The translations under genes and the position numbers were made by a program. Below the pieces are notes generated by a model. It was not told the origin of the DNA. It did no database searches and saw only the letters and a program-made list of their open reading frames with translations. 64,000 nt of DNA from Gnetum montanum. Lineage: Eukaryota; Plantae; Gnetophyta. Where the stretch lies: positions 62,001 through 126,000 of the forward strand of contig MNCI01000685.1 in the NCBI GenBank assembly GCA_015680685.1, written 5' to 3'. This document shows, in pieces, positions 1,860 through 60,837 of this stretch. The first letter of the stretch is position 1. Each line of letters opens with the position of its first letter.

Positions 1860-1861
1860 TT

Positions 1862-7296: not shown

Positions 7297-7301
7297 TAAG
7301 C

Positions 7302-26200: not shown

Positions 26201-26472
26201 TCTAGACCAAACGTATCACTATATTCCCAAGTGAAAGCAAGTGAATGATTCTATATGATTAATATCCCAAGTGAGAGCAATTGAATGATTCTATAAGATT
26301 AATAAAATAGACTCTTGAAGATCTAAAGAAAGAAGGACACTACGATGAAGGATCTTTTATTCACCTTTGCAACTTAGCATAGGAAGATTGCTCAATTAAT
26401 CATTAGTTAAGAGCGGCTTTCATTCGAAGAAAGAGAATTCTAACTAAGGCATAAGCTCATATTTAGTCTTGT
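23250..26472 (-). pseudogene. RT-RH-aRH-INT of element B (Ogre/Retand-type order)
   Basis: RT ~26470-25400; RH ~25270-24960; aRH VLYFDGA / NHIVEY / YSDL ~24870-24500; integrase DYFTKWVEAIPL and TPYFITYGCEAIL ~24200-23250. Confidence 0.9.
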
Positions 26473-26546
26473 CTAAAGAGGATAAGAGAGAAATTCAGTT
26501 TGACAGTAAGTCAAGGAAATAGGGGTCTAAAGTTTTACATACCTGG

Positions 26547-29736: not shown

Positions 29737-29739
29737 GTC

Positions 29740-32700: not shown

Positions 32701-35700
32701 TTACGTGTAGAGGTTATGGTTTGTGCAAAGTTTAACATTGCCTGCATGCAATCAGTGTGCACAAGTTATCAACATACAAAGATGCCTGTATGTAGCAGCC
32801 ACATAACAAGAAGGCACCTAGTAGCTGATAGCTGATTAAGAAAGTAATTCACTCATATGCATGAAACCAATTGAGGGTTTGACTTGTGCTTACATCAATA
32901 GCATAGACGCATTAGAGCAAGTCCACTGCCAACTTCCAAGTCTTAACCTTGAAAATATCAACTAGGGAAAGTTGGAAATCCCTGAGAAATTTAAGTAGGA
33001 GCCCCTCAAGCTGAAACCATTGCCCACCGGTATGGAATATACATTCATTAAAAATAGAAAACCAGTAATTATCAACACTAAGCTTGCTCCTCAACAGAAA
33101 GAAGAATTGATAAAGGTAATTAATAAATGGTCAAAAGCCTTCACTTGGTCATATCCCGAATTAACTAGAATAGATCCTAGGATATGCCAACATAGGATTT
33201 ACACTGACCCCTCCATGAGACCTCGAAGACAACCATAGAGGCATTTGAACCCAAAGTTGAAGCAAGTAGTCAAGGAGAAATCGAATAGCTTGTCAAGGCT
33301 AGGTTCATATACCCCATTGTTGATAGTGAATGGGTTAGCACCTTAGTTATTATGCCTAAAAAGGGAGGCAAATGGAGGGTGTGCATAGATTTTAGGCTAC
33401 TAAATATGACAACATTTAAAGATCACTTTTCGTTATCATTTGTTAACCAAGTCTTAGGCACCATTGCAGGGCATAGCTACGACAATTTTCTGGATGGATA
33501 TAGTAGATATAATCACATACAAATAGTCCCAAAAGACCAAGCCAAAACTATGTTCACCAGTCCTTGGGGAACATTTGCATATAAACAGATGATGTTTGGC
33601 TTATGTAATGACCCTGCAACATTTCAACGACTAGTTCTAAACATCCTCCAATAGTAGATAGGAAATGGTGTAAAGGTCTTTATGGATGACTTCTCCACTT
33701 ATGGAGCAAAATTTGATCAAGCCTTGGACCAATTGGATCAAGTGTTAAAAAGATGTGTAGAAACCAATTTAAGGCTCAATTGGTAGAAAAGCCATTTGAT
33801 GGTCCAAGAAGGCATAATACTAGGGCACAAAATCTCACACACAAGGATAGATGTAGACCCCGAGAAAATCAAAGTTATCCAAGGAATTACCCGTCAATCG
33901 GAAACTGTCAAAGATATTCAGTCATTCCTTGGACATACTGGCTACTATAGGAGATTTTTTGAGAACTTTTCAAAGGTTGCCAAATCATTGGTGGAATTAA
34001 CAAAAAAGGACATACCTTTCGAGTGGACCAAGGAATGTGAATTAGCTTTTCAAACTCTGAAACAGAAGCTAGTAGAAACACCCATTCTACAAGCTCCTGA
34101 CTGGTTCAAACCATTCCATATCATGATTGATGCGTCCAACTATGCCTTAGGAGCTGTACTTATGCAATTAGATGACCAAAAGCATCCTTATTACATCCAC
34201 TATGCAAGTAGAAGTATCGTTGGTGCACAACTTAACTACATTACCACAGAGAAAGATATAATGGTTGTAGTGTTTGCACTAGAAAAGTTTAGACACTATG
34301 TGTTGTGATATAAAGTATATATACATACATATCATAGTGCAATAAGGTTCCTCATGAATAAGCCAATGGTAAGCCCTCGTATCATACGATGGCTTGTAAT
34401 CTTCCAAGAGTTTGATTTTACGATGATCGATCGTAAAGGCACCAAGAACGTAGTTGCTAATCATTTATCTTAGTTGCGATGGGACAACAAAGAGGACAAG
34501 TATCCAATTTTTGATTATTTTCCTGATGAATTCTTCTTTGTTGGTGTAGTATATAATCAATCACCCATGGAGACAAATTGGTATAGTAGCATTTTTACCT
34601 ATCTCCTCACCCAAGAAATACCACAAGAGTTATACCTTAAGAAGAAACAACAGTTTCTTCATTGAGCCAAGTACTTTATGGAAATCAATGGGCAACTTTA
34701 CAAAGTGTGTCCCGATGGCTTGGTTTGATGGTTTTTTCCCAATATAGATCAACTGCGAGTTCTCCAAGATGCTCATGAGGATCCTTGTGGGGGTCATTAT
34801 GCTGGAAGATGAATGACCATCAAGATCTTGCGTGCAGGATATTATTAGCCTACATTGTTTTGGGATGTCCATCAATTCGTCCAATCTTGTGAGCACTGTC
34901 AATGTGATGGGGGAATGACTGCTAGAATGGAGGGTCCACAACAATGGATCCAACTATTAGAACCCTTCAACATTTGGGGAATTGAGTTTATGGGGTCAAT
35001 TACACCAATGTCCAATGGAAAAGTGTATATCATTATTACTATTGATTACCTAACTAAATGGGCAAAAGTAGCTGCTGTTAAGGATTATACATCATCTATA
35101 GTTGCATGATTTGTTCAACAACAAATCATAAATAGGTTTGGTGTGCCTCATGCACTTATTTTAGACAATGGTATCCACTTCATAGGTGCAACTTTTCGAA
35201 AATTAATGCAACACTTAGGGGTTAAGCATAAATTCACTACACCATACCACCCCCAAGTGAATGGTCAAGAAGAAGTCACCAAGAGAGAGATTATAAAGAT
35301 ATTGACAAGAACTGTTAGCAAGTTTAGGTGAGACTGGAGCACTAAACTAAACAATGCTCTTTGGGCGTACTGCTCGACATGGAAACTCCCTACAGGCTAC
35401 TCTCCCTATGAGTTAGTATATGGTAAATTACCAACACTTCCCATTCAAATTGAGCTTCGTACACTATCCATGGTATGTGACCTCAACCTTGACCTTGATC
35501 TAGCACAGAAACAATGGTTAGTAACCCTTAACTTGCTAAATGAAAACCAACTAGCTGCACTATCATCGAACGAGTTGCACAAGGCATTCAATAAACAACA
35601 TCATGACCTAAGGATTAGGAAAGTTAAATATCAACTGGGAGATAAGGTTCTCTATTGGAATCCCACACATGTGCCACAACGTACTAAATTTCAAACACTG

Positions 35701-35928
35701 TGGGAAGGACATTATTTTATTTATGCAACTTTTCCTTCAAGGGCCATGACAATATACAAACCTGAGAGCCCAGACAAGAAATTGTTGATCAACGTACAAC
35801 AAAACAAACCTTTCCATGAGCTTAGGATAGCTAGTACACATGCTACCTCTATTGATGGACAACCTTACTCACTATTTTGGATCTCCTCCTTCCAACTCGA
35901 TTGTGGGGGAGATGGCCACCTATGCTAA
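29740..35928 (+). pseudogene. Athila-like gag-pol, fragmented
   Basis: His/Ser-rich gag, LLDSGFNVNL protease, WRVCIDFR / FLDGYSRYNHI / FMDDF RT, DASNYALGAVL RNase H, IDYLTKW / TPYHPQVNGQ integrase. Confidence 0.93.
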
Positions 35929-37830
35929 ATGTTTTAGGCCCTCATTTCTTTTTGAATTTTTGTTTTACACATTTTTTCAACTTTTTTTTTTTACACCATC
36001 ATTCATATTTTTACTATTTCTTTGTTTTCTTGATTTACTTTTATTCATCATCTAATAAGTGCTCATGATGGTGATTGCATTATATCATATTGATTTCTAA
36101 TGTTTGGTTTTTACCTTTGAATTATGATGCTGATATTAAGGTATGGTTCTTTTGGTAAAATAGGCAATGAGTCCACGTCATCCACTCATCTATACAACTC
36201 TATGTCTCCTTTGGCTTGGAACTGTATAGTCCCCTTTTTCTAAGTAAATTTATTAATGAATTGGTGGCTAGGTACTTTTCAAACTAAGGAAAGACTCAAA
36301 GGATGAAAAGGGTGCAACTTCAAGGGGATTAGATGCATTTGTGTTGGCCATTCTCTTGGGTGCTTGGATGCTTGTTTCTTGGGTTTTCCACCATTCTAAC
36401 ATTGTTCAAAAATCAAGAAGCTGAGTGAATAAAAATAAGTCTATGCATGGTGTGGTTCTCATGCAAAAAAAAAAGGAGAAAGTGAGAATTAAAAGCACAC
36501 CCCTTAGACATAATAAAGCAATATGGGCTACAAGCACTGGTTATGAAATTGGAAAGACATGTTACCCATGCCTGAAAGTTCCCTCTAACTAAGGCCCTTT
36601 CTCACTTCCTACTTCTCCATCTCGCTCTCCTTGGGATGGTGGTCACTCTTTGTGAAGGCATTCTTGTTGCTTTAAGGGGATGGATTGGCCAGGTGTATTG
36701 ATGCGAGGTCACTAAATGTGGTTGGTTTGAGTCTAGATTTGGGATGAAGTTCTACTCAGTCATCTTAACCATGAAATACACAAAGGGCTTTACACAACCT
36801 TGTTCTTGGAATTCCATTCCATTCTCTCCTCTCCATCTTTCTTCCCATTTTCCACCTCATTTCCATTTTTATCATTAGTCTGTTCTAGGTTGATGCATTT
36901 TTTTTCTTTGGTGAATTCTTGTAGGTAAGTTTTTAACTCTTACTTCCAAATGACATTCCTAGAGCCTACGGACTCTTTGGTTTGTGGGTTTGTCAAGGCA
37001 TAAAAGACATGAGCCTGCTTTGGGGAGGATCCACTGGCATTCCTTTTTAGTGCAATTGTTAAGTTCTTTTCCTTAAATATTCTTGCAATAAATCATCTCT
37101 TGTTTCATCCCCATTCATGACATCCATTTTATTGGTGTTGCCATTGTTATTTTTTCTGATCTTTCTTGTTCCTCATATTTTTCCATCTTATAGCTACCAG
37201 AGGTTCGCTCTTAGTTGTGGGGGCCTTGGCACAAATTTTTAAATTTTCTCCATTTTACTACTCGTCTAACCCCTACACCTTAGGTAGTCACCTGTGATAA
37301 ATCTTCGAACCAATTTCTACCATGACCACAACTCAGCAAATATGCTTCATATCAAGGCAAGATATCAATTGCATTATGGCTTATCTATCCTTGCTCATTT
37401 GTGACTATGTTGTGTGTGCAAATGGAAATCATACAAACAATGGACTAGGCTTAGAGGAAGCACTTAGGATGGACTGGAACTGGAGCATTTATGAAAGGAG
37501 AAAGTCTGGTGGCATGGCTATGGATAAACAACAGAAGGCACAATCTTAGCATTGGTGGCAACACGCTTCATTTTCTTTGTCTCTCTTTCTCTACAAGCTA
37601 CCAAATAAAGGCTTGTATGTCATTTATGTACAAGTGTTCACCACAATTGTCATGAACACTAATGTTGTAATATGCTTATTGATCTGTTCACTGGGCATGT
37701 TGAGTCTGTCATCCCATTCCACCATCAGTTGTCAGTTAGTCAATAATCCCATACCTTCCCAATATTTTGTAAAGAACTTGTTTCTCTTCTTCTATACTCG
37801 AGGATAAGTTTTCATTTAGTCGTGGGGATA

Positions 37831-38848
37831 TGATGATAGCGGTTACTCTAGCAGTTATTCTAATTATTAGAGCAGTTACTTTAGCTGTTACTCTAGCAGT
37901 TACTCTAATTATTAGAGTGGTTACTCTAGTGGTTACTTTAGCAATTATTCTAATTATTAGAGTGGTTACTCTAGCGGTTACTCTAGTAGTTATTCTAATT
38001 ATTAGAGAGGTTACTATAGTGGTTATTTTAGTAGTTATTCTAATTATTAGAGTAGTTACTCTAATTATTAGAGTAGTTTCTCCCAAGCCTATAAATATAG
38101 TGCCCAGGCACACAATTGGGAAGGAAGTCTTTTAGCAATCAAGTAGCAAAAGTCTTGTAGTCTGTTTGAAAGTTAGAGTATTTTCCAAGTGCCCATAGTA
38201 AGAGGTATAAGTGTGGATGGATCTTTATTCGAGCATTGTGTACCTGAGCACACCTTGTGTACGGCAATAAAGACGAGCTCTTTGATTCATCCTTGCAGCA
38301 CTTGAGTTTTTTTTTTTACATTTCTTTTATTTTATTTTCTTATGCATTTATTTTATTTTATGCACTTTACATTTATGTTATTAGTATAGCAATTCATTTT
38401 GATCAATTAAGCAAATCATTAAATTACACTTAGTACGATCAATTCGAGCATGCGTGTAACACTTGGTAACCCAGTGACGATTAGTGTTTGGTAATCCCAG
38501 TAGTGTTGCGCTGGTTTAGGATGTGTACGGTAAGTGAGAACGGATACTAGTGTTAAGATTAGTTAGAACTTAGTTAATGAGTAGTTAAGTTAAATTAGTC
38601 ACTTAGTTACCTCTCTCCTTCCCTACTAGTGCAGGACATAAAAACATAAAATGTATAAAAATCATATGCCTCAAGCTTACTTAAGCATACAATCGTGACA
38701 TACAGGTAAGCTTGGGAAGACAACGTTCAACCAACCCATCCTTGTTCCACAAGGGTGGATAAGCGCTTAGTCCTTGGAATTCGACTGGATCATGCGTGAA
38801 ACGCTCGTATGCCTATGGTTGAGTGTAGGGGTACCTTGCCACTAATCA
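37831..38848 (+). repeat. 3' LTR of Athila-like element, with 12/21-bp U3 repeat at 37838-38075
   Basis: TGATGA...TAATCA termini, TATAAATA ~38090, homologous to 312-948. Confidence 0.92.
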
Positions 38849-39880
38849 AAGCTCATGTGAATATTTTCATGTTGCCATGCAAGAGTTTGATGACATCTTG
38901 AGCAAACTAAGGTTCTATTAAGGAACTTGGTTTCAAGGTTTTCTCCCCACCGTTATGGGTATTGAGATGGGGAATTCAACCAAGGAACCCTCTATGATGG
39001 TTTTAGATTCTCCAAGCTAAGGACAATTAGGTCATTGCATGACATTAAGGCTATACAGTCAAAGGCTTATAGGCTCTTGATTTTAGCATTCAAGGTCAAC
39101 TTAGTCAAACAACATCACAAGAAGGGTTCATTTAAGCTCCAAGGCTAGTCAAATTACTTTCTCATCTCCCTATCACAATCCTACATATCAACATAAGCAC
39201 ATTAAGTGGCATCTACATAATAGGATTGTTAAATAATGCGAAATATTGTGATAATAGAGTAGCATAAGGCCAAAACATAGTAGAATTAGGCTAAACAAGG
39301 CCAAAACAAGATCATAACAATATGAAGGTAAAACTAGGCAAAACAAGGTAAAACAAGTTGCAACGAGGCAAACTATGGTTAAACAAGATTAAAACATGGT
39401 CAAAACAAGGTAAAATTAAAGCCAAATAAGGTAGATTAAGGTGAAACAAGGTCAAACAAGTTTTAAAATAATAATATTTATTTTTTATTTATTAGTTATT
39501 TTTGGTTATTTTATGATTGAAATAAACAAAAATCTCATTAAAATAAGTTATAAGCTACCAAAATAGATGAAAATTTGGTGTCAACCTATTGTAAATTGCT
39601 AAAATAAGTGAAAATCCAAAGAAAATAGGCTATAAATTATTAAAATAATCAAAAAAGATAGCAAAAATTATTAAAATACTTTAAACTATCATAAAAAATA
39701 GAAAGATCTTGTGAAATAGGTTGTAAACTACCAAAATAGTGTTTTTTTTGTTGCCAACATAACATGTGCACATTAAATCCTCAATGTATAAGCTTATTTG
39801 GGTGGATTTTTAGTAGTTAGAAACTTTCTTGTTTTGTCCTATCTGTTGGTTTATATGTTTTAACAACTTATGGGAAAGAT

Positions 39881-40322
39881 TCGAATGGAATTTTCTAATT
39901 CCATATCTCCTACATTGGCATATACGTTGGCCAACATATGTAGCTTAGATTGTTAACATATAGTCAAGTTTGGAATCCAATTTTCTAATTCTATTCTTGC
40001 TACATTGGCATATATATTAGCCAACATACGTAGCTTAATTTGTCAACATATAGTTAAGTTTTAAATGGAATTTTTTAATTCCATTCTTCCTATGCTAGCA
40101 TATACATTGGCCAACATATGTAGCTTAATTTATCAATGTATAGTCAAGTTTGGAATGGAATTTTCTAATTCCATTCTTCCTACACTGATATATACTTTGG
40201 CCAACACATGTAACTTAGTTTCTTAACATATGATTTAAGTTGAAATGGAATTTTCTAATCTCATTCTAGATACGTTGGCATATACATTAGCAAACATATG
40301 TAGGTTAATTAGCAACGTAGGA
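39881..40322. repeat. 90-bp tandem repeat, ~5 copies
   Basis: AATGGAATTTTCTAATTCCA...TTGGCCAACATATGTAGCTT units start at 39881, 39971, 40061, 40151, 40241. Confidence 0.95.
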
Positions 40323-41807
40323 AGGTTTGGGCTAGTCTTAGTAACTTTTGGAACTTAATATGTTTTAGTAGCATTTGAAACTATAGAAAATATTTGGGCT
40401 TGGTATTTGACGTGTCTCAGAATTGTAGTGGCATAGGGGAGCATAGGCAGGTTTCCTTGGCAATGATGGCCAAAAGTGTGGCAATAGGGAAGAGTAATGT
40501 ATAGCTCGGCTTGGCGAAGGTAGGACAACTATAGGCGCATGAGGATAGGGGAGAAGGCCCTTACTCAATTTTCTTTATTGTTATTAGTATTATATTTTTT
40601 TTCCTTTATTGCAATGTGCAGGCATGCGTGCAAGTGGCAATGACGTGGTGAACGGTAGCACACGTAAATGGTAGCCCTGGTGCATTTCTATTATGTGTGG
40701 CAGGCATGTAGGCAAGTGTAGGTGTAGGTGTGGGCCTATGGATAGGCTAGCGCTACTAGCCGTGGTGGCTATTGGTAGGGCCTAACCCCAAAATTAATAG
40801 ATTTTAATTTAATTTTTTTCAAATTGGTTTCAAATTTGTTTTGGATTTGGTTTTAATTTTCAAAAGTATTTGAAATGAAATCATAGCCTATAGGTTTTGC
40901 ATGTCTTTATTACCAAAATCTAACTTTTATGAATTCCTCTTCATTGAGTTAGTATATTTCCAGTGGATCATGGAGACATGAAAATGAAAACCTCTCATAA
41001 CAAGGATTTAAGAGCTTCATTTCATGGCCTATGGATTCATAGTATTACTATCATTGTTTCCTTGGGTAATAGATGTATAAATGCTCTATTATGGAGCATG
41101 TTTCAGCAACCTTGGTAGGTTGTGCTGCAAGAATAAAATTTCTTTATGTTGCATACTGAGGTAGATAGTTGAATGTATGTTTCAATTACATGACTCTTCT
41201 ACATAAATTGTTAGATTTGTACAAAAAGACAAAACAAAGTTTAAAAGGCTTTGATTATTACTATTCATTGAATACAATGATAGTGCTTCTATAGAAAGTG
41301 TTGTCTAATGGCTTAGCAAGTATCGATAATTGCTCACTGTAAGATTTGAGTCATTGAGGACATATAAGATAACACAACTATTTTTACCATGTAGTAGATG
41401 ATCAATGCTATATGAAATTTGCATTCTATCTGCAATTGTTAAAAGCAAGTAATTTGCACCCATCTTGAATTTCAATTTTTTTTGGTCTCTTCAGTGAATT
41501 CACATTTTATCTATTTCTTATGAAAGCACTGAAATTTTGCCAAGCCAACAATAAGAATAGAAATTTACAATGGTGAAGCTATATGCAACCGAGAGCATGA
41601 TACACAATTTTTATTTTTGGTTGGCACAAATCCCTTGCCATTATTTGATTCTTACATCCTTCATGTCTCATTTTCCTGGCTAAATGTCCTATGTTGTGTT
41701 GTTGCAGTGTCTGTGTCATGCTAAATCCCTTGTATAAAATAAGTTTATTAAATTATTGTTTTTTTAAAAAAATTTACAGTATTTTCCTATGCAATTTTTT
41801 TTAAAAG

Positions 41808-41896
41808 ATTTGTGATATGGTTGCTATCACAAGACTTATGAATGCAACTCTTGTAATCCCAAGTCTCGATAATAGTTGCTTTTAGGGTGATTCAAG
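41808..41896 (+). pseudogene. Captured 89-nt exon of a plant O-fucosyltransferase-family (GT106) gene
   Basis: AG|ICDMVAITRLMNATLVIPSLDNSCF*GDS(S)|GC; matches family motif ICDMVA.AR..NATLV.P.LD..SFW.D.S; W codon changed to TAG. Confidence 0.88.
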
Positions 41897-43049
41897 GCAA
41901 CAATGCTTAGTTTCTACTTTCATTATTCTTACAATATTTGAGTTTGTTTAAGCTTTTCGACCATCATTCTACAAAAAATTTTATCCACCCAAGCCCCAGT
42001 GCTATCAATTTCTAGCCTCTTGTTGTGTCAAAAACTTGGTTTGTGTTTTTGATATTGTCAATTTGATGTTATTTCATGTTGTATCTTTGGTTTTCATTGT
42101 ATTTTCATGTTCTAACATTTTTAATGTTTTGTTTATATGCCTTGCAGTGTTGAAATTGATGAAAATATTGATGATATGGATTGCCCTCTTCCTCCCATCT
42201 CTTGGTTTTCACTCCCACTGAATTTGTTACATTTCACTGTTTTAATTTTATCATTGTTGTTGTATTTTATTATCACAACCTTAGAGAATGTATTATTTTT
42301 GGTTGTTGTATGTTGTGCAGTGCAATTATGGCTATGAATATTTATATTTCTTATACATGTATATTTTTTACCATGTGTTATATAGTGTAACTATGGCTAT
42401 TATTTTGGTTTAAAATTTTTATGTTTCATATATTTTATATTTTTCTATATTTTACATTTTCATGAAAACTTAAATAGTAAAAGAAGGCCATGAGCTAAGG
42501 CTAAAACTAAAGATAAGGTTACAAAGTAAAATTGATGCAATAAAATCACAAAGGAAAGGCATAAACATTAAAGTAAAACAATAAACATTACGATGAGGTA
42601 AACTAGTTATAATGCATAAACAATGGAAAGAAGAGGCTATGTATTTACCAGTTTCAGGCCCAAGGAAGTTATTGCATTGCTAATGTTAGGCCTTGATGGA
42701 TTGTTGCCTTACTAGTTTTAGGCCTTGGTGGGCCATTTTTTTTGCCAATTTTAGGCCTTAGTAGGCCATAGCCACATTTTTCTAACAAGTATGAGATAGC
42801 CTCAAAAGAGCATATAAAGATAAAACAAACAATGAAACATGATATAAAATTGTGAAGGTGAACAAATGATTGTTAACTAATGAAGTGATAAGATGTCTAT
42901 GATGTATTTGTTGCTTGATCCTTGATAAATCAAGGGACTTATTTTATATGATCCCATGCTCATCATGATTCTTATTTGATATGGAAATTGGTAGATGTTT
43001 TTGTTGATCATTTAACATTGTAGATTTGACATTGTTAACATTGTTGTTG

Positions 43050-46000
43050 TTTTTAGCCCTACCCTGAGCATCAGGACTTTTATCTTGAAACTCTACCTTT
43101 GAACCTTAGTCAATATTAACGTTGTTGATAGATGATGAACATGTGTTATCTCCATGAATGACAATTTCATAATCCTCGTATGAGAAGTGATTCTCCTTAT
43201 ACATAGGAGATGAGACTATGTGGAGCTTACCTAACCATGGTCTTCCTAGGATTAAGTTAAAACCTGGTGTCTCTTCGACTATTAGGAAGTTGGCAGAAGT
43301 GGGAAATTATTCTCTAGCTATGAAATCCAAGGTGATAGAACCTTGTACAGCTACACATGGCCTATTGAATGACTAAAGTGTAGAGGTAGAGATTTCTTGG
43401 ATATTTTCTGTTAAGCCTAGTTTCTCAACAATGGTAAATGGTACTACATTGGCTATTGCCCTATCATCTACATGAACATGATGAACTTTATACCTGCTAA
43501 TACATATCGTAATGAGGAGAGCAGCATATAGCACCTCTCTACTTTGTGAGTTAGTCTTCACCTCACTATCATGAAAGTTAAATATAGGTTGATGCCTATT
43601 TTTCTCAAGTAAAGTTTGCTCAATGATAGAGCAGATGGATTTTTTTTTTATTTTTTTTGTTAGGCATGTCTCTGCTCATAGGAATAGAGGTCAAAATTTA
43701 AGTTAGCACATCTCTATGAGCAGGGGAAATCATGACTAGGTCATAAAGGTTCAAGGATGTGTTCTATTATTTGAGGGACCATTTAGCTTGTTCCATTATT
43801 GCAAGGAAATTCTTTCTCTTAGTGTGTGATCTTTTAGCCTTGGTGGTCTTAATTTCCTCCATTCACCATATAATTTTTTATTCATATCTTTGTGTATGTT
43901 GCTTGGGCCCCTTGTCCATGGGTGTAGCTAATCTTGGTGTAGGCTTTGGTGGGTCAACTTGTTTCCAAGAGTTTTATTGTTGACTACCTTTAGTAGGGTT
44001 AGTTGCTAGTTTGGTGACAGGTTTTTTTCATTGCTATTGTGATGATTATTTCTTGTTAATCATTGAATTTTTGGCTATTAGAGCTATACTTTGGTCATGG
44101 GTTATTATGGATTTTCTTGTTGAAGGCAGGTAGACTCAGATAACAAATGGTTCCTTAGCCTTAGAAGGATTGGTAATGTGTTGTTTGGGTTATGGTATTG
44201 ATGTCACTGAAGGTGGGATACATATGACAAAAGACTTCTTAGGGACCAGAGGTTATGATACCTTGATGACAAAGGGGATTTTAGGCTTTATGTTGTGAGG
44301 TTAAGGTGGTCCCTTGATAACAAATAGTTTCTTAGGAGGATCAGATCATTTGGTTGTTGTGAATGAGGCTATAGTGTAAGAGTTATAGTTAGTGTTTGGA
44401 GAGTTGGCTTGTTTAACACTAACTCTCCATAGTCAATAATCTTTTGGAGGTCATCCATTATGGCTAGGTAGAAATTAGTATCATGACCAGTAATTTGATG
44501 ATAATGGCAAAACCTATCCAATTTGAAGTACTTTTGTAGTGTCAAATCATCTTTGGTTGCTATCTTTGGATCTCTAGCTATGTCACAAAGACGATCATGC
44601 CTCTTATGAGCTTCCTTAGATAGTTGTTTATGTTGTATATGATTGTCTTTAAGCAACTATTCTAAAAGCTCTGAGTGCTTCATAAGCAACCTAGTGTACT
44701 TTGACCTATCTTTTTGCTCAAAATTTGATCTTGGTTGGTTGGAAGCATATGAAGTAAATGGATGAGATGATTTAAAATATGTGTTGCATGGTGGTGATCT
44801 CTATCTTTCTGCTTGTTTTGTATCCTTGGATGTTGTAGCCACGGTTGTTTGCTCTTACTTAGTTTTCTCCCTATCCCTCCTCACATGTTGGTTTTTATAG
44901 GCCACATAGGCTAATTTGTTACTAACCTCAATTGCTTCCTTAATGTTTTTAGTTTGAAAAAAGGCTTGGCTCAAAGATTGGAGCTCTACGTAATAAAGCT
45001 TTGACTTAGTGAAGTCATTAGCTACTCTCTTGAAGATAGACAAAAGGTGAGTTTCAAAGATAGGCTTTGGAATCTCATTGAGTGTTGAATTTCATCTCTA
45101 AATGAACCTTTGAACTAGTTAAAGTGACTCCTACCTCACCTTTATGAGTTAATCCAATGTTGTATCTAGCTTTAAGTTGTATCTGAAGTATTTGATGAAT
45201 TGATTTATTAAGTGTTCAAGGAAAGAGATGAAATCTCTAAGCAAGGTTCGATATCAATCTAAAGCCTTTACCTTAAGGGCCATAGGGAAAATCATGTGAG
45301 GCCAATCTTGCAACAAGAGGCACTCAAAATAGAAGGTGACCAAGTGTGCATTAGAATCCCCTTTACCAGTGTATTTTGTGAAGTTCAGTATAGGCATGCT
45401 TGTAGGTAAGGTTATTTGAGGAACAATAAGACTTATGGGATCATCCTCGTAGAAATTCATAACCTTCACCATTTGTGAGCTTTAAGCTTTCATAGCCCTT
45501 TGGTAAGGACTTGGATCATTTGGAAGGCTTGATCTAAGCCTTAGAACATTCCTGATGGTTGTGGTATTTTCACTAATGGTTGTGAAGGTTGAATGGCTTG
45601 GGGCTACGCTGTGGACATCTATATAGATTAGAGAGGTTATGTAATTACTATCATAGGGGAGTTAAATAGCAAGAAGAATGTTTGAGTTGGGATATGAGGG
45701 ATGAAGGGAACAAAGGAGGTATGGGAGGTTTGTGAAGCCTAGGGTCCCAAAGAGAACCCCATTGGTATGACAAAAGAAGATGGTGTGGCAGATACCACTA
45801 GTGATGATCACATAGAATGAGGTTGTGTAGTGAACAACATTGTTGAGAACAAAGGTGCAAAATGGAACATTGACTAAGTTTGGTGCACTACTACAATGAG
45901 TGTTAAGGTGAACATGGTAGGGAATAAAGGTGGAGACTAAGGAATTTGATCTATAGAGAAGAAAGGAGGCTTATAGCTAGGAATGGTCATCTCAAGGTGA

Positions 46001-47093
46001 ACATGGTAGGGAATAAAGGTGGAGACTAAGGAATTTGATCTATAGAGAAGAAAGGAGGCTTATAGCTAGGAATGGTCATCTCAAGGTGAACATGGTAGGG
46101 AATAAAGGTGGAGACTAAGGAATTTGATCTATAGAGAAGAAAGGAGGCTTATAGCTAGGAATGGTCATCTCAAGGTGAACATGGTAGGGAATAAAGGTGG
46201 AGACTAAGGAATTTGATCTATAGAGAAGAAAGGAGGCTTATAGCTAGGAATGGTCATCTCAAGGTGAACATGGTAGGGAATAAAGGTGGAGACTAAGGAA
46301 TTTGATCTATAGAGAAGAAAGGAGGCTTATAGCTAGGAATGGTCATCTCAAGGTGAACATGGTAGGGAATAAAGGTGGAGACTAAGGAATTTGATCTATA
46401 GAGAAGAAAGGAGGCTTATAGCTAGGAATGGTCATCTCAAGGTGAACATGGTAGGGAATAAAGGTGGAGACTAAGGAATTTGATCTATAGAGAAGAAAGG
46501 AGGCTTATAGCTAGGAATGGTCATCTCAAGGTGAACATGGTAGGGAATAAAGGTGGAGACTAAGGAATTTGATCTATAGAGAAGAAAGGAGGCTTATAGC
46601 TAGGAATGGTCATCTCAAGGTGAACATGGTAGGGAATAAAGGTGGAGACTAAGGAATTTGATCTATAGAGAAGAAAGGAGGCGTATAGCTAGGAATGGTC
46701 ATCTCGAGAACCATATAGTGTAAGAGGTTCCCTATGAATATGTTTGGCTCATACTCTACTCCAAACCCATCTTGTTCCTCTTGGTTTTGGTCTAAGTTCT
46801 ACTAGTTGTGCTAGCATATGTGTATGTAAATTTGTTATCTTGATATGGTCATAAGGGGAGAGAATATATTTCTTCCTGTTTTAGTGAATAATTTTGAATT
46901 ACCATTTGCACTCTGATTTTGTGTGTGGGATGGGAAAGCTAGCTTGAATCTTAGCACAAATGAAGTTATAATATTCTTTATTAATGTTTGTGTAAGATGG
47001 GTCCAATCCCATTTGTTGAAGGGATTGCCTATATTCTACCATAGCAAGATCCTTAGGATCATAGATACAGACAAATTCTTGGTTGGGTGCCAT
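43050..47093 (-). pseudogene. Tat/Ogre-type gag and aspartic protease
   Basis: Candidate start MAPNQEF at 47093; FTKYTGKGDSNAHL gag core; CHYHQITGHDT zinc knuckle; protease VHVDD..ANV and FNLILGRPWL. Confidence 0.88.
45905..46705. repeat. 89-bp tandem repeat, 9 essentially identical copies
   Basis: Unit starts at 45905, 45994, 46083 ... 46617; one substitution seen in the last copy. Confidence 0.97.
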
Positions 47094-47996
47094 GTGTGTT
47101 GTGTTGTGAGGTAAAATTATGAAATGATGAAAAGGCATAAAAGATATAAGACTAATGTGTAAAAATGCTAACTTATGAACTCTAATGCATGAGAGGTCCA
47201 AGTTGTACAAATCTCAACATATAAGCTAGCTTATAAAACGTATTAAGCTAACTTGTAGAGCATAATGAGGTAACTTGTAAAATGTATTAAGCTAATTTAT
47301 GAAAAATCTTAGCTTGTTAGGATGCCAACATATTTAAGCTAACTTATAAGGTGCCAATGTGTTAAGAGTTTCAACTTATAAAACTATAATATATTAACTG
47401 CAACTGCAATGAAACATTAAAAATTAAAACTTTTCAAAAAATTTCTAGCATTTAACTACATTGGGGAAATTGAAATTATGCTTCAACATTTATAGCTAAA
47501 CATAGAAAAACTTTTAAAGTACAGGTGCATGAGACAGGAAAATTAGTACACACTGCAACTACAAAAAATAAATCTAAAAGTTGTAGATGCAAGAGGTAAG
47601 AGTAGCACTAGGCACTACAATTGTGGAAAAATTAAATTTTCAAATTACTGATCACAGGGAGTTGGATCTATGTACTGCCATTGTAAAAATTAATTTGGTT
47701 GTAATTTCAAGTTGCGGGGAATCTAGCCAATGCTACAAACTACCTTGTGAAAATAGTGATGAGAAAATTTGGTTTTAAGCTAAAATTGATTTATGCTCTA
47801 CAAGTTGGTGTTTTGGAAAAACCCAAAATTTGGTTTATGCTCTACATGTTGGTGTTTTGGAAAAATCCAAAAAATTGGTTTATGCTTGGTCTTGGGAAAA
47901 TCCAAAACAAATTTTAATGTTTAAAGTATATTGACAAGAAAATGCAAAAATATGTGAAGTATTGGAAAATGGGTTTTGATGAAAAAATTAGGTAGA

Positions 47997-48015
47997 GGAC
48001 CTTCTTCTAGCACCA
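47997..48015 (-). promoter_or_regulatory. Primer-binding site, tRNA-Asn
   Basis: Minus strand TGGTGCTAGAAGAAGG vs complement of plant tRNA-Asn 3' end TGGCGCTAGAAGGAGG; adjacent to 5' LTR. Confidence 0.75.
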
Positions 48016-48020
48016 AAAAA

Positions 48021-49038
48021 TATAGCAATGGAAAAATTTAGTGCTGAAAAGCCAAAAATTCCTATACAAAACAATTTAACCCTAGATCCAATGGTCTTTA
48101 GAAAAGCATCTAAAGCACCTCAAATAGTCTGGTTGATTACTTGAGGACTTAGACTATCTATTACTGAGTATTAAAAGACGTAAACCATATGGTAGTTTAA
48201 GCACAGAGTTTGATAATAAAGAGATGTAAAAATGAACATGACAAGCAAAGAAAAATGTAAACTCTGTATTAAATGTAATAAAAATTTATGGAAATCAAGG
48301 TTTAAAGAATACAACTTGTGGGCTTAAAAAATCCAAGAGAAAAAAGAATGGTCTTGGAGTTTTGATGCAAATGGCAAGGTATGTTCTGCAACTAGATTTG
48401 TACTTGTATATACCAAATGATTTGCACTTGAACTTTGCCTATGGTTGGTTCTCTTTACTTTGATGCTCTGTACTAGTTAAAAAATGGCTATGAACCTTTT
48501 AGATTTTTGTTTTGCTCTAAAAGTCTCTAGAAAATAATCCAAAAGTCCTTAAGAAGGTGCAAACTTTGGCTTAAATAGGCTATGAATGTCTTGATTTTTT
48601 GTTGGTTGATTTAGATATGATTGCTGCCAAATTTTTAACAACTTCTACAACTTTTTGGAAGCTTTGTGTGGCCAAAATCTACAACATGTGGTATACCAAT
48701 GTTTTTGGCCTTTTGGGCATGCAATACCAATGTATTTGGAACTTTCACCATCCACAAAGTGCAACATATTAACCACAAATGTTTTTGACTTTTCTTGCAA
48801 AATTTTGACAATGTATTAACATAGTATACCACACATGTTGGCTTAAATGGAATTCCAACATTGTGGGTTGTAAATTCCACCTCACACATTTAACAAATGT
48901 CCAAAATATTGCAAGAATAAGGTTGTGTGGTAGGATTTTTAATGGGGAAGTAGGCAATTATTTTTATCTTTAAGTTCCCACCAAATTACAATGTGCATTC
49001 TTGACTATTAGGCTTTTCTTAACTATTAGGGTGTTTTA
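48021..49038 (-). repeat. 5' LTR of gag-PR element
   Basis: Homologous to 26547-27650; both terminal dinucleotides mutated (TA...TA). Confidence 0.88.
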
Positions 49039-49043: not shown

Positions 49044-49057
49044 CCTACCATGTTCAC
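49044..49057 (-). pseudogene. Micro-exon of element B RT gene (18 nt with 26543-26546), split by the gag-PR insertion
   Basis: Reconstructed CCTAG|GTGAACATGGTAGGCCAG|GTATGT, homologous to 19812-19877; downstream intron 26473-26542 ends TCTTTAG. Confidence 0.75.
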
Positions 49058-50415
49058 CTAGGCTAAAATTACAAGATCAAATTTGCTATCAAGAGAAGAG
49101 AAAACATTAAAAAATAAGCGAAAAACATCAAAAGGTTGATGTCAAAAGTCTAGGAGTGTGTATCATTTTTACAATATAAAACAATGTTGGAAGAAAAAGT
49201 TAGGTACACAACTTTCATTTACAATGAGCACTATTGAGAATCAATGCCCAAGCTTCTAAAAAGTGACAACACAGCAGGAACTCCTAGAAAAAGATGATAA
49301 GTCATAGCAGTAGTGGCAAATAAGGGACCAAAGGTGGATCTAACAAAAAGGGATTGCCTTGACCTACTTATAGTCTCCTAGAGCTCAACAATTAGTTACC
49401 AAAACCCTAGTGAGGAATTTTTATCTTATTTTACTATTACTGTAGCGTTATTGTAATGGAAGTTTTAGAATGTACCAAAATTCTAAAAGATTTGTCTAGG
49501 TATTGGATTTTGAAGCTTGAATTCAACATTGTATAGTAGTTTAGAATAGATTTAAGCTAGGAATCTAACATTTTAGTTTGATTTTATGATGGGAATTGAG
49601 AACTCCAAAACGTTACTTAGGTTTTTCATGTTTCTGGATGTTTTCTAAGATCTGTGATTAGAAATTAAATGCATGTATCAATTTCTTAGTCTACTTTGCT
49701 GTGAGACACATCAAAATCTAGGGCTTTTATGCAAATTTTATAGTAAAATTTATCAAGATTTAGAATTTTAACATTTTTGCTATTGTATTATTCAAAGTGA
49801 TGTAGCTAGGGCAATGAATATCATATTTTTATGTGATTTTGAGCTAAATTTAACAAATGTATTAGAGAGGAGGTAAAATTATAACTAAATTGATGTTTTC
49901 ATGAAATAATTTAGAATCATTTTCACAAAATCATAAGAAAACATCATATTAGGGGTTTTTGGGTCATGAAGAACATGATGCATGATTAACTTGATGAGAG
50001 ATTTTAACATGATAGAATGAAAGTGTTTATTCCAAATGCTAAGTATTGGAGACATTATGCATTCAAATTGAGTTTTCGATGTGAGACATCAAAATTCAAA
50101 GTTATCACTACATTAAGATTTTATGATGTTGTGCATCAAAAGAAATGACATATGATGTCAAAGTTATTTTTACCAAACATACTTAAATTTTGATGTAATT
50201 CATAGATTGTTTTGATGTGAAATGTCAAATTTTAGATTTATCACTTAGAAGTTTTTGCCAAACACCATAGGACAAATGATGTGAGAGATCAAAATAAGAT
50301 TTAACACATCACATAGAAGTAGCTAGGGAAATTGATGTAGAGCATAAGAGTTTTAACATGAAAAATTTCAACATTCTCTAGTGTGCTTTTGACATTATCT
50401 TTTTTTTCTCTATAG

Positions 50416-50725
50416 GGATGTTGCAACATTAAGATTACTTGTTATTAAACCAATATACTTCTTTCCTGTAGATGAAGGAAGTATTTTGGAGACTAACCAA
50501 AGAAAGGCTTGTCCAATAATAACCAAGCCACTGTTCAAAGATAATACATTGATCCTACCAAAACTATGGGCAAGGAAAGGGGTTGTAGAATTACTGATAT
50601 TCTACATCGCTTACTTCCATGTGGTGATTTGGATGAGCTTAGGAGAAGAAGTGGGCTTGTGGCATTTGGAGACAATCCTTCTAGAATTCTTTGCAAAGCT
50701 TACAGAGATTATTTACAAGTTGTAG
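50416..50725 (+). pseudogene. Conserved hydrophobic coding exon, copy B
   Basis: Follows polypyrimidine-TAG acceptor at 50415; DVATLRLLVIKPIYFFPVDEGSILET aligns with DATTSRLMVIEPLLLFLIDDKSILKN of copy A. Confidence 0.6.
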
Positions 50726-51128
50726 TCAAATGTTGAAGAGCTTACCATGGATGCATTGGTATATAGAAAATGCTTGGATAAATTGTGGGAATGAAAGGAA
50801 TATTGATATTTCAATATTGATAGCACATTACTACTAGAGATGTAGACTACTAGAGTAATGTCTAAGACACCAAGCATACAAATGTTTGTTAAAAGATGAG
50901 CTAGAAAAGATTAAAGTTAGAAGAAAGTTAGCCTTTATTGGCCAAAAAGACTAATTTTAAGTTTATGGTACAAGTTTAAGGATTGAGATATGCAAAGCCC
51001 TGATTACATGACATTCCTCTAAAATTTGCTATTACACCTATCATGACATCAAAATTGGAGACCTTAGGTGATGTCTTAGTTTAATTTGTAATACAAAATC
51101 ATAAGAACACATAGATTCTAAAAAGAAT

Positions 51129-54100
51129 ATGAAAATAAGAGATGGGTTCATGTATTAGGGAATGAAGTTCGAGGAGAGCATGCAAAGTAGCTAATGGGGT
51201 CAAGGATTATCCTAAGGCCTAAAGTTAAGCATAAGTATTTTAAGAAGTTATTTTCATGTGTTTTTTTTTCTAAAAGAAATAGTTTGTTGATAAAAGCTAA
51301 TGCCTATTTGTAGGTCAAATAGACATTAATGATGCCAAGTTCATTGATGTCATGAGAGATGCAGAGAATGTATGAGATGAGATCCATAAGTAAGGTAGTA
51401 AGTGCCCAAAAGTTACTTTTTGAAGGTGAGGAAGTCAAATATTTTACAAGGTTTGATAGGGTAGGAATTTTATGTGCTTTATGCTTAAAGTACTCCCTAC
51501 CCTAGTGTAGTAGAGTGTGTTGGCTTAATAAAGAGTTATGTAGCTAACAAGGTAGTTTTTGTCATTTTTGTAAACTAGAAACAAGTGATGATCACTTGGG
51601 TTCTAGCTACACTAAGATATTGGTTGGGCTTTACCAAAAGAAGAATAAAGATTAATATCACTAAGTTGGATTCAGTAGAGTTATCAATAGTAGAGAAATG
51701 GATAGAATCATAGAAGAGGAATGCCATTAAAATGAATAAGGGGAATAATGAGGATCTAAAAAAGACTTTTTTCTTTATTTATAAAAATACTCCTATATAA
51801 TAAAATTAGGTGAAAATGAAAATTGACCTCTGGGAGGTTGTACACATTATACGAGACTATGTCCCAAGGAAGGACAACCGACTAGGTACTAGTGATCTAT
51901 TAAGAGGTAGTTGCAGAGATAGAACAACTATCTTAGGAGAAAAAGAATGGGAAGAAGAAGAAAGTGAGTAAAAGGCTCAATTTTAGGTTTTATTATAGGT
52001 TAATAAGAGTAGCAATAACTTTGTTTACCTGTGGTGGGGACAAGCAAGCTAATATTTCTTTGGAAGCAGACTTCGGACCCCCATTATGCCAACACTTGGA
52101 AAGTTTAATATCTACCTATAGCATCAGAGGCAAAGGTCCTTTGACATCAGAATTAAAGAGTATGAAAGAAGTTAGGTCTTCAATGTCTAAAAACATTGAA
52201 GAACTCTAGAAGAAAATAAGTAGGGATGTTAAAGCAAGGAAGGAGGCAATTTTAGAGAGTACATCTAAAACTTTGAAGAAAGGGAAAGTGTCTAAAAAAA
52301 CAAACACTCTTTTAGAGGAAGATATCACTTCAAGGATGCTAAAAATCAACATATGCAAGGAAAAGTTAGAAGCACAAATAAGTAAGTTAGTTTTTTTTTT
52401 TTTTGGAATTTTTGCTAAGTATTTTCAACACGACATCATTTCTAGTTTTAACATGATTGAGAAATGATGTAATACTAACACTTAGCCATTTTCTCGATCA
52501 TAAAGGCTGCAAGAGATAGCAGGGCTCTAGAACATGAAGTAATGAAGTTATGTTCTACCCTTTTTTCATTCTTGAAGGACAAAAGGAAGGTATAATTCAA
52601 GAGGGAAAGAACTTCTTGGATAACTTATTTTCATTATAGGCAAATGAAGAAAATAGAGAAAGTATGACTTTTTCTAATTTTCTTGATTTATTTTTTTATG
52701 AAATAGGCCAAGAAGAACAAGAAGGTAAGGATGGAGGAAGAAATGAACCTTCAAAGTTTGAACTTCCTCCTCCTTCTCTATTGGACATCACTCCTCCTAG
52801 TAGACTAGTTTTGACCAATTTTGAGGTTTGCAAGTGGATAAAGAAAGTGAATAGCTTTAGATTCTCCACATCATATGGTAAGTGTAAATGATGTGATGTT
52901 AAAATTTTTGAAATTAATAAAATTTTAACACAAATAAGACTTAATCATTTTCTTCACTAGAGATGAAAAGAAAAATCTAGGCTTAGGTTATGGACAAGCA
53001 GATGATGTTAGAAGATTTAATAGAAGACATGAAGGCAAAAATGAATTTGCTATCTCAAAAGAAAGGTAAGTTTAGAAAATTATTTTTACTAAATAACATT
53101 CATTAGTTAGAGGTATAGAATCTAATGTTGTCTTGGTTAAAATGCAAAAATAAAGATAAAATTAAAATTAGCATTAGGTGACCTTTCATGATTCTTCAAT
53201 AAACATAGATGTCATGGTGAAGAAGATTGATGTAGATAAAATAAGTGTTGCTCTTAACTATGTAAAGGACATTGGAGTATTAGCCATTAAATATTCCAAT
53301 ACCAATGCCATGCTCCTAAACTCATTAGAGCAAGCATGAAAAGATAAAGAAGAAAATGACAAACAAATAAAGATTTTGTTTGACCAAGTAGAACTATTAG
53401 AAGCAGAGATCTATGGTAATAACATGGTGAGGTATAACCCTTATTCCAATGCATATTGAATGAAAAGGAATAAAGAAATTGAGTTTCAAAGAGCATTGAT
53501 GAAGAGAAAACGTTTAGCTTTGGCCATGACGCAATCCATGACAAATTTGAGAAACTTAGCCATAGCCTGGGAAAGTTGGGGAAAGAAGTAATGAATAAAT
53601 AAAAAGAGATAAAAAAGAGAGTACCAAAGGCTATTGAAAAAATAAGGAGTTTATGTAGATAAAGACTTTGTTCATTAAACGAACTAAGTTAGAAGACTTA
53701 TTCAATGATTTTGCACAAAGTATGATAATCACCACATTGGCAGAAGAATAGAGGGATCTTAAAGAGGAATCAATAGTAGAATGGAAAGATGATGACATCT
53801 CGCTAGAAGAGTTGAAAGCCTATGAAGAAAAATGGGAAACTATCCTATTAAAGATTCCAAGTTTAGCCTTTGAGAAATTAGACATAGCATATCTGAGCTT
53901 GGAAAAGATAGAATAATGAATCCTAGAAATCTATGAAGAAACCCAAGATAAGTAGTAAGACTTACAAGAATCATTTTATTTTATTCTATTTAGATACATG
54001 ATAAAATAAAACTAAATCTTATGATCATGTTTGTTTGTTTGCAAATGTCCAATGTAGAGAAGATTTACTTTAAAATTAACACTTATCTTATATTTTTCAT

Positions 54101-56210
54101 AAAGAGGTTGAGTAGGAAATTCACTTATGCTACTAGAGGAATTGTTATCCTAATAAGTAACTTTTCAGTAAACATGACCTATTTACTCTTCTTGGAGATA
54201 TAAAGAAGGTATGAAGAGAAGAAATTAAGGAAACATATAGTTCCATTTCCCTATTTAATCAAAAAGCTATGCAAACAAGCTGGTATTTTAGGGTATATCA
54301 ATGGTACACTAAGAAAGGCCCCAAATGCATCATATTCTAAAATCTCTAAGCCAATACATGTCAAGAAAGATCAAGTTTAGAAACCACCAAGCACATAAGC
54401 AACAATAACATTCACACTAGCAGGAAATACAACAACCATAGGAGTAGAACAAGCAAGGGCTAATACTTTAGTACTAGTAGTAGAGCAAATACTTTATAGG
54501 CCTACAATAAGCCAATTACAACAAATAGCTAAAATTGTGAGCTAGGGCACTAGAAATGTATTAAGCATGTTTAGAGTTAGAAAAAACTCAAATCATCCTA
54601 TAGTATCAAGAGGTCTGGCCAATGGACAAGTATCTTTGTAGTCAACAGGAGAAGATTGGATGCAGCAAATTTCTAGAAATGTTGCATTATTTCAAATAAC
54701 AGTTGAATTAGGAGAAGGAGCTATCATAGTAATCATGTAGCATAAAGGTGAATAGGAAGCTTCTAAGCTTATCACAAATCATATCAATGAGGCCATTAAT
54801 GTTCTTGTTGTGCCACCCACTAATTTCATTGGACCAAAAGATGCTCAAGTTATGGTTAGAACATTTGAAACAAGAAAAGAAAAAGAGATTATAACTATAG
54901 AAAAACATAAAGATGCCCTTCATAAGTTAATGCAAATGAGCCAAATCATGCAAGATTATTTTGACATTTTTGATAATATAACTGTAGTGCAATTAAAACT
55001 TATTTTCACAAAAGGGAAATTGGTGATATAAAAAAACAAGGCTATAGCACACTGAGTTGGAGATGTAGAATTTATAAGATGAATTATCCCAACTCAAAAT
55101 TCAAAGGCAAGATCCAGCACACTATGTGACATTAGAACAACTAGAATAATTCAAAATTAAACAAGTAAACCAGTTGATGGCCAAACATAAGAAATTAGAA
55201 ATAGAGGAAGAAAAGATAATGTGGAATGCATCTACTACAAATGCCAAGACATATCTCCATGCTAAGACCAATAAAGAGGTTAAAAAACAACAAAAAAGAG
55301 AAAAATCAATTGAGAAAAATCTTGAAACTACTTATAGAACAGTTTGTTAGGGTTAACATCAAAATTAAGTATTTGACTAGAGAAAGCAAAATCTTATCAA
55401 TGGAAGAAGTTTGCATCATTCAAAAAAAGTTTTTAATAGATACTCATGTGTGATAAAATAAGGCCAAGAAGTATGAAAATTTGAAAGAGCACTTCAAAGA
55501 CCAAGTGGAAATATGCAAAAAAATCAATGAAAAGAAGATCCAAATGGCAAAGTCCTAGATCAATAATGCGATGCAATAACTACTAAACTAGTAGCCCATT
55601 ATGGATAGTCTACCATTGGTCCATTAGGCAGAATTAAAGGTCAAGGACTTGTAGATAGAGGATTTAACATTAGACATGGAGTTAACTAATCTAAAATACA
55701 CCAACTTGGCCATGTTGATAGTAATGAGACCTAGAAATGAATTAGAGCAGTAGTAGACCACTATGCACCTATTATATGATAAAGTAGTCATGGAGAGAAA
55801 GAAACCATAGTAAAAATTACATATTGCCAACTCTAAACTATAAGTAGTCAAAGTTAGCTATCATGATAAAAACACTATAGAAATAGACTTGGCTAGATGA
55901 GTGAATAGTTATCAAGATTTACAAAAACTAGCCAAGGCCTTTAAGATTGAAAGGAACCAATTTGTAGCATGGTACATCAAATCCAATAAATTGTTCCCAT
56001 AATTGATGTGTCCTTAGGAACTGTCCATACTAATAAGCCTTGCAAATTAAACGTTGATAGTTAATGATCCCAAGATTGAAGCAAAAAAACTAAGAGCATT
56101 TTTAAATCATTTTCACATGAAAAAATTAATAGCATTAGGAAAGCAGCCTCAAGAGCCATCGATGTAGCAAGACTCATCACCATGAATGACCACATGAAGA
56201 CCGACATTGA
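51129..56210 (+). pseudogene. Multi-intron accessory gene, copy B: Transposase_32-like domain(s) plus long coiled-coil-like region
   Basis: Introns 51235-51313, 52382-52503, 52878-52960, probably 53066-~53148 and 53955-~54043; motif VPFPYLIKKLCKQAGI ~54238-54285; K/E/Q-rich decayed frame to ~56200. Confidence 0.72.
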
Positions 56211-57398: not shown

Positions 57399-57414
57399 AT
57401 CCCCACATTGACAA

Positions 57415-59570: not shown

Positions 59571-59739
59571 CTACTTCCTATAAGCACATCCTTCACGTAA
59601 ACCAACATCAATAGACTTCAAGTCCAATAGTCTCCCCTGTGAGGCTAGCAACTTCATTCCCTTTTTGACTCATGTGACCCAACCTTCAATGTCACAATGT
59701 TGACATTGAATTTGACATTATGTATTTTATGGTGTACAA

Positions 59740-60812: not shown

Positions 60813-60837
60813 TGCTCCCACTAATCCTTTACAACCT

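Follow-up and report, generated by a model that had tools for sequence, protein, structure and literature searches.

The window analysed here is a stretch of 64,000 nucleotides (nt) from Gnetum montanum (GenBank assembly GCA_015680685.1, contig MNCI01000685.1, positions 62,001 to 126,000 of the forward strand), and all coordinates refer to it. It holds two decayed copies, A and B, of a putative multi-exon gene lying antisense to, and head-to-head with, the polymerase region (pol) of a Tat-type Ty3 retrotransposon, in which reverse transcriptase (RT) and RNase H (RH) are followed by an additional RNase H (aRH) and integrase (INT). An inverted self-match of the window (15909-17644 against 53040-51308, 63%) spans the finding as one homology, and the pairwise alignment of B 50400-53040 (+) with A 18540-15909 (-) covers 1772 columns at 63%. 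Copy B runs from 50416 to about 56200 (+); copy A (18526-15909, -) is truncated at its 3' end, which aligns to B 53040. The initial annotation had opened the gene at 51129, but the homology reaches about 730 nt upstream of that point, and together with the coding signal it can be followed as far as an acceptor at 50415. The gene is larger than first noted, with an upstream exon and a fourth shared intron added, and the acceptor shows that it begins still further upstream, where the true first exon lies. The gene models contain the following features, with the acceptor score based on plant splice frequencies.

50416..50895 (+), copy B: first detected exon; acceptor score 12.0, 110-codon open frame at 50393-50722, tblastn-style match to A with E 5e-23
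50896-50973 (B) and 18065-17972 (A): fourth shared intron, missed in the initial annotation; GT-AG in A but without canonical ends in B
50974..51224 (+), copy B: exon 2 (ending at 51234 if the donor first proposed is used); start phase 2, 177 against 98/106
51225 (or 51235)-51313 (B, +) and 17721 (or 17711)-17639 (A): intron 1; acceptors aligned
51314..52381 (+), copy B: exon 3; contains a region resembling PF20167 by eye only, blank in Pfam
52382-52503 (B) and 16574-16458 (A): intron 2; phase 1, with a non-canonical acceptor in B
52504..52877 (+), copy B: exon 4; from the frame-aware test
52878-52960 (B) and 16073-15989 (A): intron 3; phase 1, with a non-canonical donor in A
52961..53065 (+), copy B: exon 5; copy A ends at 15909, aligned to 53040
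53066..53177 (+), B only: likely further intron; GTAAGT donor, GC content 0.21
53954..54104 (+), B only: likely further intron; GC content 0.21, ends uncertain
54105..56200 (+), copy B: last long exon or exons; stops and frameshifts, a weak PF20167 C-terminal match, then a tail rich in E, K, Q and R
15909..18526 (-): copy A gene, with its four introns as given above

The substitutions between A and B carry a clear coding signal. Across 700 aligned codon pairs, mismatches number 229, 174 and 322 at codon positions 1, 2 and 3 (p 9e-11), and dN/dS is 0.41 (kappa 2), below all 100 neutral redraws that had passed through the same frame-choosing procedure as the data (median 0.71, lowest 0.56). When frames were fixed beforehand, the counts were 224/182/298 in 676 pairs and dN/dS was 0.47 (bootstrap 0.37-0.59), against a null median of 0.84. 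A ratio near 1, which the initial annotation had named as fatal to its proposal, was not seen. These figures argue for a real gene, once functional and under past selection. That selection was probably stronger than the ratio suggests, because decay after insertion would push dN/dS towards 1. Both copies are decayed and show a strong depletion of CG and CAG and an excess of TAG. This is the pattern expected from methylation-driven C-to-T change in plant repeats.

The three intron pairs first reported sit at aligned columns in A and B, and the exon peptides quoted with them are present in the alignment of the two copies. Their terminal dinucleotides are canonical in ten of twelve cases, the exceptions being B 52502-52503 and A 16073-16072. 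The intron sequences had been called unalignable by eye, which holds for two (z 0.6 and 1.9) and not fully for the other two (z 3.6 and 2.0). Comparing exon with intron divergence, as had been proposed, showed that the shared introns are AT-rich (GC content 0.19-0.29 vs 0.28-0.36 in exons) and diverge faster than the exons in these two copies. The four shared introns contain 6.4 gaps per 100 nt, 3.5-fold more than the exons (1.8), and their global alignment scores per base range from -0.04 to 0.20, compared with 0.15-0.93 in 24 exon windows of 80 nt (p 0.0016).

Reading phase across the junctions was followed by a frame-aware test in which shifts were allowed at alignment gaps. Splicing restores the frame at introns 2 and 3 as originally placed, with phase 1 on both sides of 52382-52503 (upstream 709 vs 704/659; downstream 265 vs 254/249) and of 52878-52960 (265 vs 193/178; 71 vs 49/41). 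It does not do so at intron 1 with the donor first proposed (51235/17711), where the best upstream phase is 2 (188 vs 176) and the next exon starts in phase 1. Moving the donor 10 nt upstream (51225/17721, GTAAGC in A) allows matching phases, with a tie at 177/177; the first donor was probably misplaced, and 51225 is more likely than 51235. The four splice features considered (GT-AG ends, AT-richness, phase and fast divergence) were found for introns 2 and 3, for intron 1 with the shifted donor and in part for the fourth. The gene likely carries at least four introns, and four to six are predicted. A reading in which all junctions are in phase within copy A alone was rejected once compensating frameshifts were found.

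Upstream of the gene, both copies share a homologous spacer and a pol start on the opposite strand, and these comprise the following features.

49058..50415 (unstranded): B spacer between gene and pol, homologous to the A spacer; palindromic motif sites at 50090 and 50226
18527..19811 (unstranded): spacer of copy A, in which neither gag nor protease was found; palindromic motif sites 18720 and 18769
49044..49057 (-): 5' portion of copy B's pol mini-exon, preceded by an acceptor; a nested element parts it from its donor
26473..26542 (-): sense-strand intron at the pol start of B, 70 nt; counterpart in A at 19878-19956
23150..26472 (-): degraded RT-RH-aRH-INT of the element carrying B, from RT, RH and INT matches and aRH
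19812..20524 (+): A pol start, with mini-exon 19812-19877 (66 nt), intron 19878-19956 (79 nt) and an RT stub cut at 20524

The layout common to A and B consists of the gene, a 1.4-kb homologous spacer and an RT with its own 5' intron, with no gag-protease between. The spacers align end to end (18553-19821 with 50312-49048, z 14.5; four controls reached up to 2.7), and the pol starts are homologous as well (A 19876-20126 with 26544-26303). Both pol starts show an acceptor, a mini-exon, a GTATGT donor, an intron of 79 or 70 nt and then the RT frame. The mini-exon measures 66 nt in A and 18 nt in B after rejoining, a difference of 16 codons. Hidden Markov model (HMM) profiles of gag and protease found nothing in either spacer. 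For comparison, 46 RT loci were fetched from metagenome contigs and the 8 weakest set aside; among the 24 of the other 38 with at least 1.9 kb upstream, 16 have a protease 0.9-1.7 kb before the RT match. The pol at 26472-23150 contains the set that defines the Tat clade of Ty3 elements (RT, RH and INT with the additional aRH), and its aRH lies between RH and INT as in Ogre elements; the aRH match (RVT_3, E 0.00089, 19.6 bits) is just below the cut-off of 21.6. No PF04195 open reading frame (ORF) occurs in the stop-free stretches downstream of INT.

In copy B the gene and pol are parted by two nested elements, the inner within the outer. Removing both joins gene B to the RT-RH-aRH-INT at 26472-23150, and the join is confirmed by copy A, in which the homologous spacer and pol start are uninterrupted.

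26547..49038 (-): nested gag-protease-only long terminal repeat (LTR) element, with LTR pair, primer-binding site (PBS), polypurine tract (PPT) and target duplication
49038-48021 and 27650-26547 (-): its 5' and 3' LTRs, direct repeats identical in 837 of 1003 columns (83%)
48015 and 27663-27655 (-): its PBS-like site and its PPT (purine tract)
45409-44993 and 43579-43136 (-): its gag (HMM E 3.6e-18) and protease (HMM E 1e-14)
28787..38848 (+): Athila-like element inside the gag-only element, with its own target duplication; its 5' LTR enters the N gap 28840-29736

The target duplication of the gag-only element has four of five bases alike. No RT, RH or INT match was found in 38850-48100, and within the gag-only element these domains were found only in the nested Athila-like element, a label that we assign from LTR and PBS features. 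Without its nested insert, the gag-only element is about 12.4 kb long; its LTR pair, PBS and PPT are intact, and it includes tandem arrays of 89-bp (45816-46827, copies nearly identical) and 90-bp units (39859-40310). The gag-protease at 45409-43136 was considered as the host's own and rejected, as it belongs to this nested LTR element.

The initial annotation had placed the gene inside an LTR retrotransposon, and no LTR pair enclosing it was found. On its 5' side the host element is interrupted at 57021 by a Copia-derived insertion and at 61260 by an Athila-like LTR, and the 5' part of the host probably lies beyond the window. A candidate LTR match between 56200-57020 and 20528-23320 was rejected when its z of 8.3 (15 shuffles) fell to 1.8 with 60 shuffles.

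Searches with the encoded protein gave little. The initial annotation had seen a likeness to PF20167 possibly twice, at 51490-52000 and in a motif near 54240. Only one weak match emerged, at 54153-54287 (E 0.0031, 17.9 bits vs a cut-off of 45; profile positions 133-176 of 177). The first region, tested in three frames of each copy and with a 216-residue piece of A, matched none of PF20167, PF03078 and PF04195. The word twice therefore rests on resemblance by eye, and the likeness of the exon 3 region is presumed, Pfam giving no match there. PF10536 (PMD) did not match the gene either. The tail of the copy B protein, with E, K, Q and R making up 31% of 334 residues, appears coiled-coil-like. 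No match was returned by phmmer for a 164-residue B piece against 1.84 billion representatives or by three word-indexed protein searches, each limited by length class. Scans of metagenome and viral contigs for the gene confirmed 0 of 257 and 0 of 213 candidates, and none of the 46 fetched RT loci matched it at E 0.01. The ESM Atlas gave no usable match for the product (best 0.77), and AlphaFold with a two-row alignment gave a mean predicted local distance difference test score (pLDDT) of 32.6.

The gene stretch was found in four DNA sequencing runs of three organisms, with 5537-6329 contigs per run, all 30 of 30 bins covered and 72-76% of contigs less than 90% alike; read depth here does not equal copy number. 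Contigs with 69-120 differences run through introns 2 and 3 (among the 32 listed of about 25,700 pieces), and coverage at 55400-57000 is several-fold deeper than elsewhere. The gene is clearly repeated and belongs to a multi-copy family. Indels of other copies cluster at 53985-53999, inside the B-only candidate intron 53954-54104, and exact intron removal was seen in none of the 15 DNA joints listed (938 in total). Four RNA runs, of which 2-26% each was covered, placed 88-442 reads, nearly all of them partial, and their coverage is uninformative on splicing; none of the four RNA joints listed falls at a predicted intron, which is no evidence either way. At 56414-56461 all four RNA runs have 18-43 reads that match 48 bases and carry the same unrelated flanks, which suggests that a single transcribed locus contains a related segment.

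A degenerate palindromic motif, similar to TTGACGTC-N-GACGTCAA once deamination is allowed for, has 15 matches in the window, ten of them in one array.

21447..21638 (unstranded): array of TTGACGTC-like palindromic motifs downstream of INT, 10 of the 15 window matches

Fourteen of the 15 lie in the A spacer (2), the B spacer (2) and the region downstream of INT (10), where shuffled means are about 0.05 per region; as the pattern was derived from the regions in which it is enriched, this enrichment is only a lead. The palindrome may be a site of host bZIP type or a target of the accessory protein itself.

The proposal of a multi-intron gene that lies antisense to a Tat-type pol in both copies, was under past selection and belongs to a multi-copy family is supported by these results. 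We give a probability of roughly 0.7 to the reading that A and B are decayed copies of a once-selected, multi-exon antisense gene of a multi-copy Tat-type Ty3 family, head-to-head with RT-RH-aRH-INT and likely a spliced accessory gene with its own promoter. Transcription of the gene would start in the spacer and run opposite to the genomic RNA, and the introns of the gene would be copied in each cycle because the packaged RNA never presents the gene's splice sites. Pol would probably be expressed from its own spliced mRNA, with the common acceptor, the mini-exon and the small intron. The idea that antisense orientation explains the survival of the introns fits the data, but such orientation is not strictly required, because a sense-strand intron of 70-79 nt at the pol start is common to both copies and survives; orientation would be sufficient and not necessary, as in Ogre elements, of which only some transcripts are spliced (PMC6317226).

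Several points weigh against this reading. The base-by-base comparison covers two copies only, which hold 32 and 27 stops in 700 codons plus frameshifts. Poor alignment was one of the grounds on which the introns were first chosen, which makes the exon-intron contrast partly circular. The shifted donor of intron 1 lacks GT in B, the upstream side of the fourth intron singles out no phase (378/364/372), and a cruder, blind test with fixed windows agreed on phase in only 4 of 8 cases. The B-pol join spans an 897-base N gap inside the nested elements, and the window yielded neither an LTR pair nor a PBS nor a gag for the host element. Finally, the PF20167 match falls short of the gathering cut-off of 45 bits, a score lowered by decay and exon splitting, and no sequence search returned a protein relative.

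Among the alternatives, the one that survives best, although we hold it improbable, is that the gene is a passenger from a DNA transposon (CACTA TnpA-like or MULE-type) or from the host, captured once, with a selection signal that predates capture. Many short introns are typical of DNA-transposon and host genes, and the Pfam name of PF20167 is 'putative plant transposon protein'. Capture of MULE-related domains by Tat elements is also on record (PMC4408406). However, A and B diverged while joined to the same spacer and pol start, so that their dN/dS of 0.41 would reflect selection after capture. Moreover, neither terminal inverted repeats nor a transposase were detected near the gene, although old copies can lose both, and PF20167 has been reported in an extra ORF of Athila (PMC11728184).

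It is more doubtful still that the locus holds two or more separate antisense genes, or that its AT-rich stretches are partly low-complexity or deleted coding DNA and not introns. One intron-like candidate (51968-52031 / 16989-16926) did turn out to be coding, being 70% identical, open in B and with mismatches of 5/2/8 by codon position. In addition, B is the sole source for 53040-56200, 2 kb separate the C-terminal PF20167 motif from the first region of likeness, and four of the eight shared introns counted over A and B have a non-canonical end on at least one side. Against this, the lengths of the shared introns differ by 16, 6, 5 and 2 nt, three of which are not divisible by three, and at two junctions the phase matches across the intron by a clear margin. 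It is very improbable that nested insertions and deletions produced the head-to-head layout by chance and that the gene is that of another element, even in a window of at least six nested elements and an assembly gap, in which no host LTR pair was found. The order of gene, spacer, mini-exon, intron and RT occurs twice, with homology that runs throughout, and a target duplication marks the interruption in B.

Under the antisense accessory gene reading, the position of gag-protease admits more than one answer. The option we lean to, at somewhat less than even odds, is that it lies beyond the gene and outside the window, the gene being housed in an enlarged Ogre-like intron between protease and RT. 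It could quite plausibly be absent and supplied in trans, and some other location is improbable. Tentatively, the product would be a nuclear regulator that binds nucleic acid through a PF20167-like domain, with the coiled-coil-like tail, and acts on the promoters of the element, possibly at the palindromic motif common to both spacers and the 3' region. More speculative is a divided retrotransposon, in which a gag-less partner would use a bidirectional internal promoter to make a spliced RT-RH-aRH-INT in one direction and a multi-exon DNA-binding regulator in the other, and would be packaged by separate gag-protease-only elements like that nested in copy B.

Other features of the window concern its pol lineages and neighbouring insertions. 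An RT tree of 134 columns, built without named references, places the RTs labelled A and C outside a 28-row group that contains all 27 fetched relatives used; the two group together with a long-branch row, which weakly suggests a separate lineage. The copy A RT stops at a TGTTAC junction at 20525, where the 3' region of the B-linked pol begins, and the B element may have inserted into A. Two aRH arrangements occur in the window, before RT and between RH and INT (9277-12400, +; 26472-23150, -); the former has been associated with club-mosses and gymnosperms and the latter with angiosperms (PMC6317226). Just past the truncation of copy A lies a Cullin-family fragment (14197-14532, +, E 8.4e-7), and other host-gene-like pieces adjoin the truncation, including 15909-15780 (-). 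The Copia-derived insertion at 57021-61260 (-) contains 268-bp tandem repeats and an Athila-like LTR fragment (58315-58389), and its PBS at 60840-60850 is of the tRNA-Met type. A Copia element with a 90% LTR pair at 1505-7297 (+) adjoins an Athila-like LTR copy at 1-1240.

Most parts of this arrangement have already been described singly, namely antisense accessory ORFs, 5' reverse extra ORFs (eORFs), the Ogre intron, PF20167 in an Athila ORF, spliced antisense Copia transcripts and gag-protease-only elements. The closest parallels are the antisense ORFs of Tat/Retand elements (maize Grande gene23, rice RIRE2 and Silene Retand TRP28), which are antisense accessory genes and are conserved from copy to copy; for Grande gene23, a promoter of its own and a nuclear product are described (PMC7264820, PMC11963269). 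However, these ORFs lie between pol and the 3' LTR and mostly encode PF04195, whereas the gene here lies upstream of RT, lacks PF04195 and has a predicted four to six introns. The Retand trait of an antisense TRP28 (PF04195) between pol and the 3' LTR was not found here, and the word intron is absent from the main text of PMC11963269.

Ogre elements resemble the host of the gene in the order RT-RH-aRH-INT and in an RT frame that stands behind an intron, apart from gag-protease (PMC6317226, PMC4408406). The Ogre spacer averages 274 bp and a sense PMD ORF precedes gag, while here at least 7 kb with an antisense gene precede RT, with neither protease nor PMD. Of the Ogre gag-protease ORF parted from RT by a short intron, only the intron signals are present, the spacers being devoid of gag and protease, and in place of a sense 5' extra ORF, often PMD, the gene is antisense. 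The ORF of sunflower Athila 14, among the Athila extra ORFs with PF20167 or PF03078 (PMC11728184), is linked to the gene here by the latter's weak match to the C-terminal 45 positions of PF20167, but it is listed as a 487-residue ORF in the plus orientation, in contrast to the antisense, multi-exon gene of an aRH-bearing element.

Among more distant parallels, the Boty brtn unit of Botrytis (Zhao et al. 2011, cited in PMC8365987 and PMC7264820) is antisense within an LTR element but comes from a fungus and has its place between pol and the 3' LTR. In Arabidopsis, antisense transcripts of Copia elements (bioRxiv 10.1101/2024.04.02.587720) are multi-exon and spliced but non-coding and start in the 3' LTR. 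The wheat elements RLG_Sabrina, WHAM and Wilma (PMC9744471) include GAG-protease-only elements like the nested element here, but the partner Wilma encodes GAG, RT and INT, and a gag-less partner with pol and an accessory gene is not described in the parts of that paper concerned.

The theme is therefore known and the position unusual, with a multi-exon gene directly upstream of RT. In the literature searched, which excluded subscription papers and supplements, we found no antisense gene with several introns placed immediately before a pol that is spliced on its own. Surveys of extra ORFs can easily overlook multi-exon genes with short exons, because they relied on unspliced ORFs with a minimum length of 250 codons (PMC6317226) or 600 bp (PMC11963269), and PMC7264820 explicitly calls for a search for antisense spliced transcripts. 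The family described here is a candidate for such an antisense spliced gene, placed at the boundary between protease and RT. If gag is absent, it would represent a retrotransposon split into complementary partners; if gag lies upstream, the element would splice over a whole antisense gene to make its polymerase.

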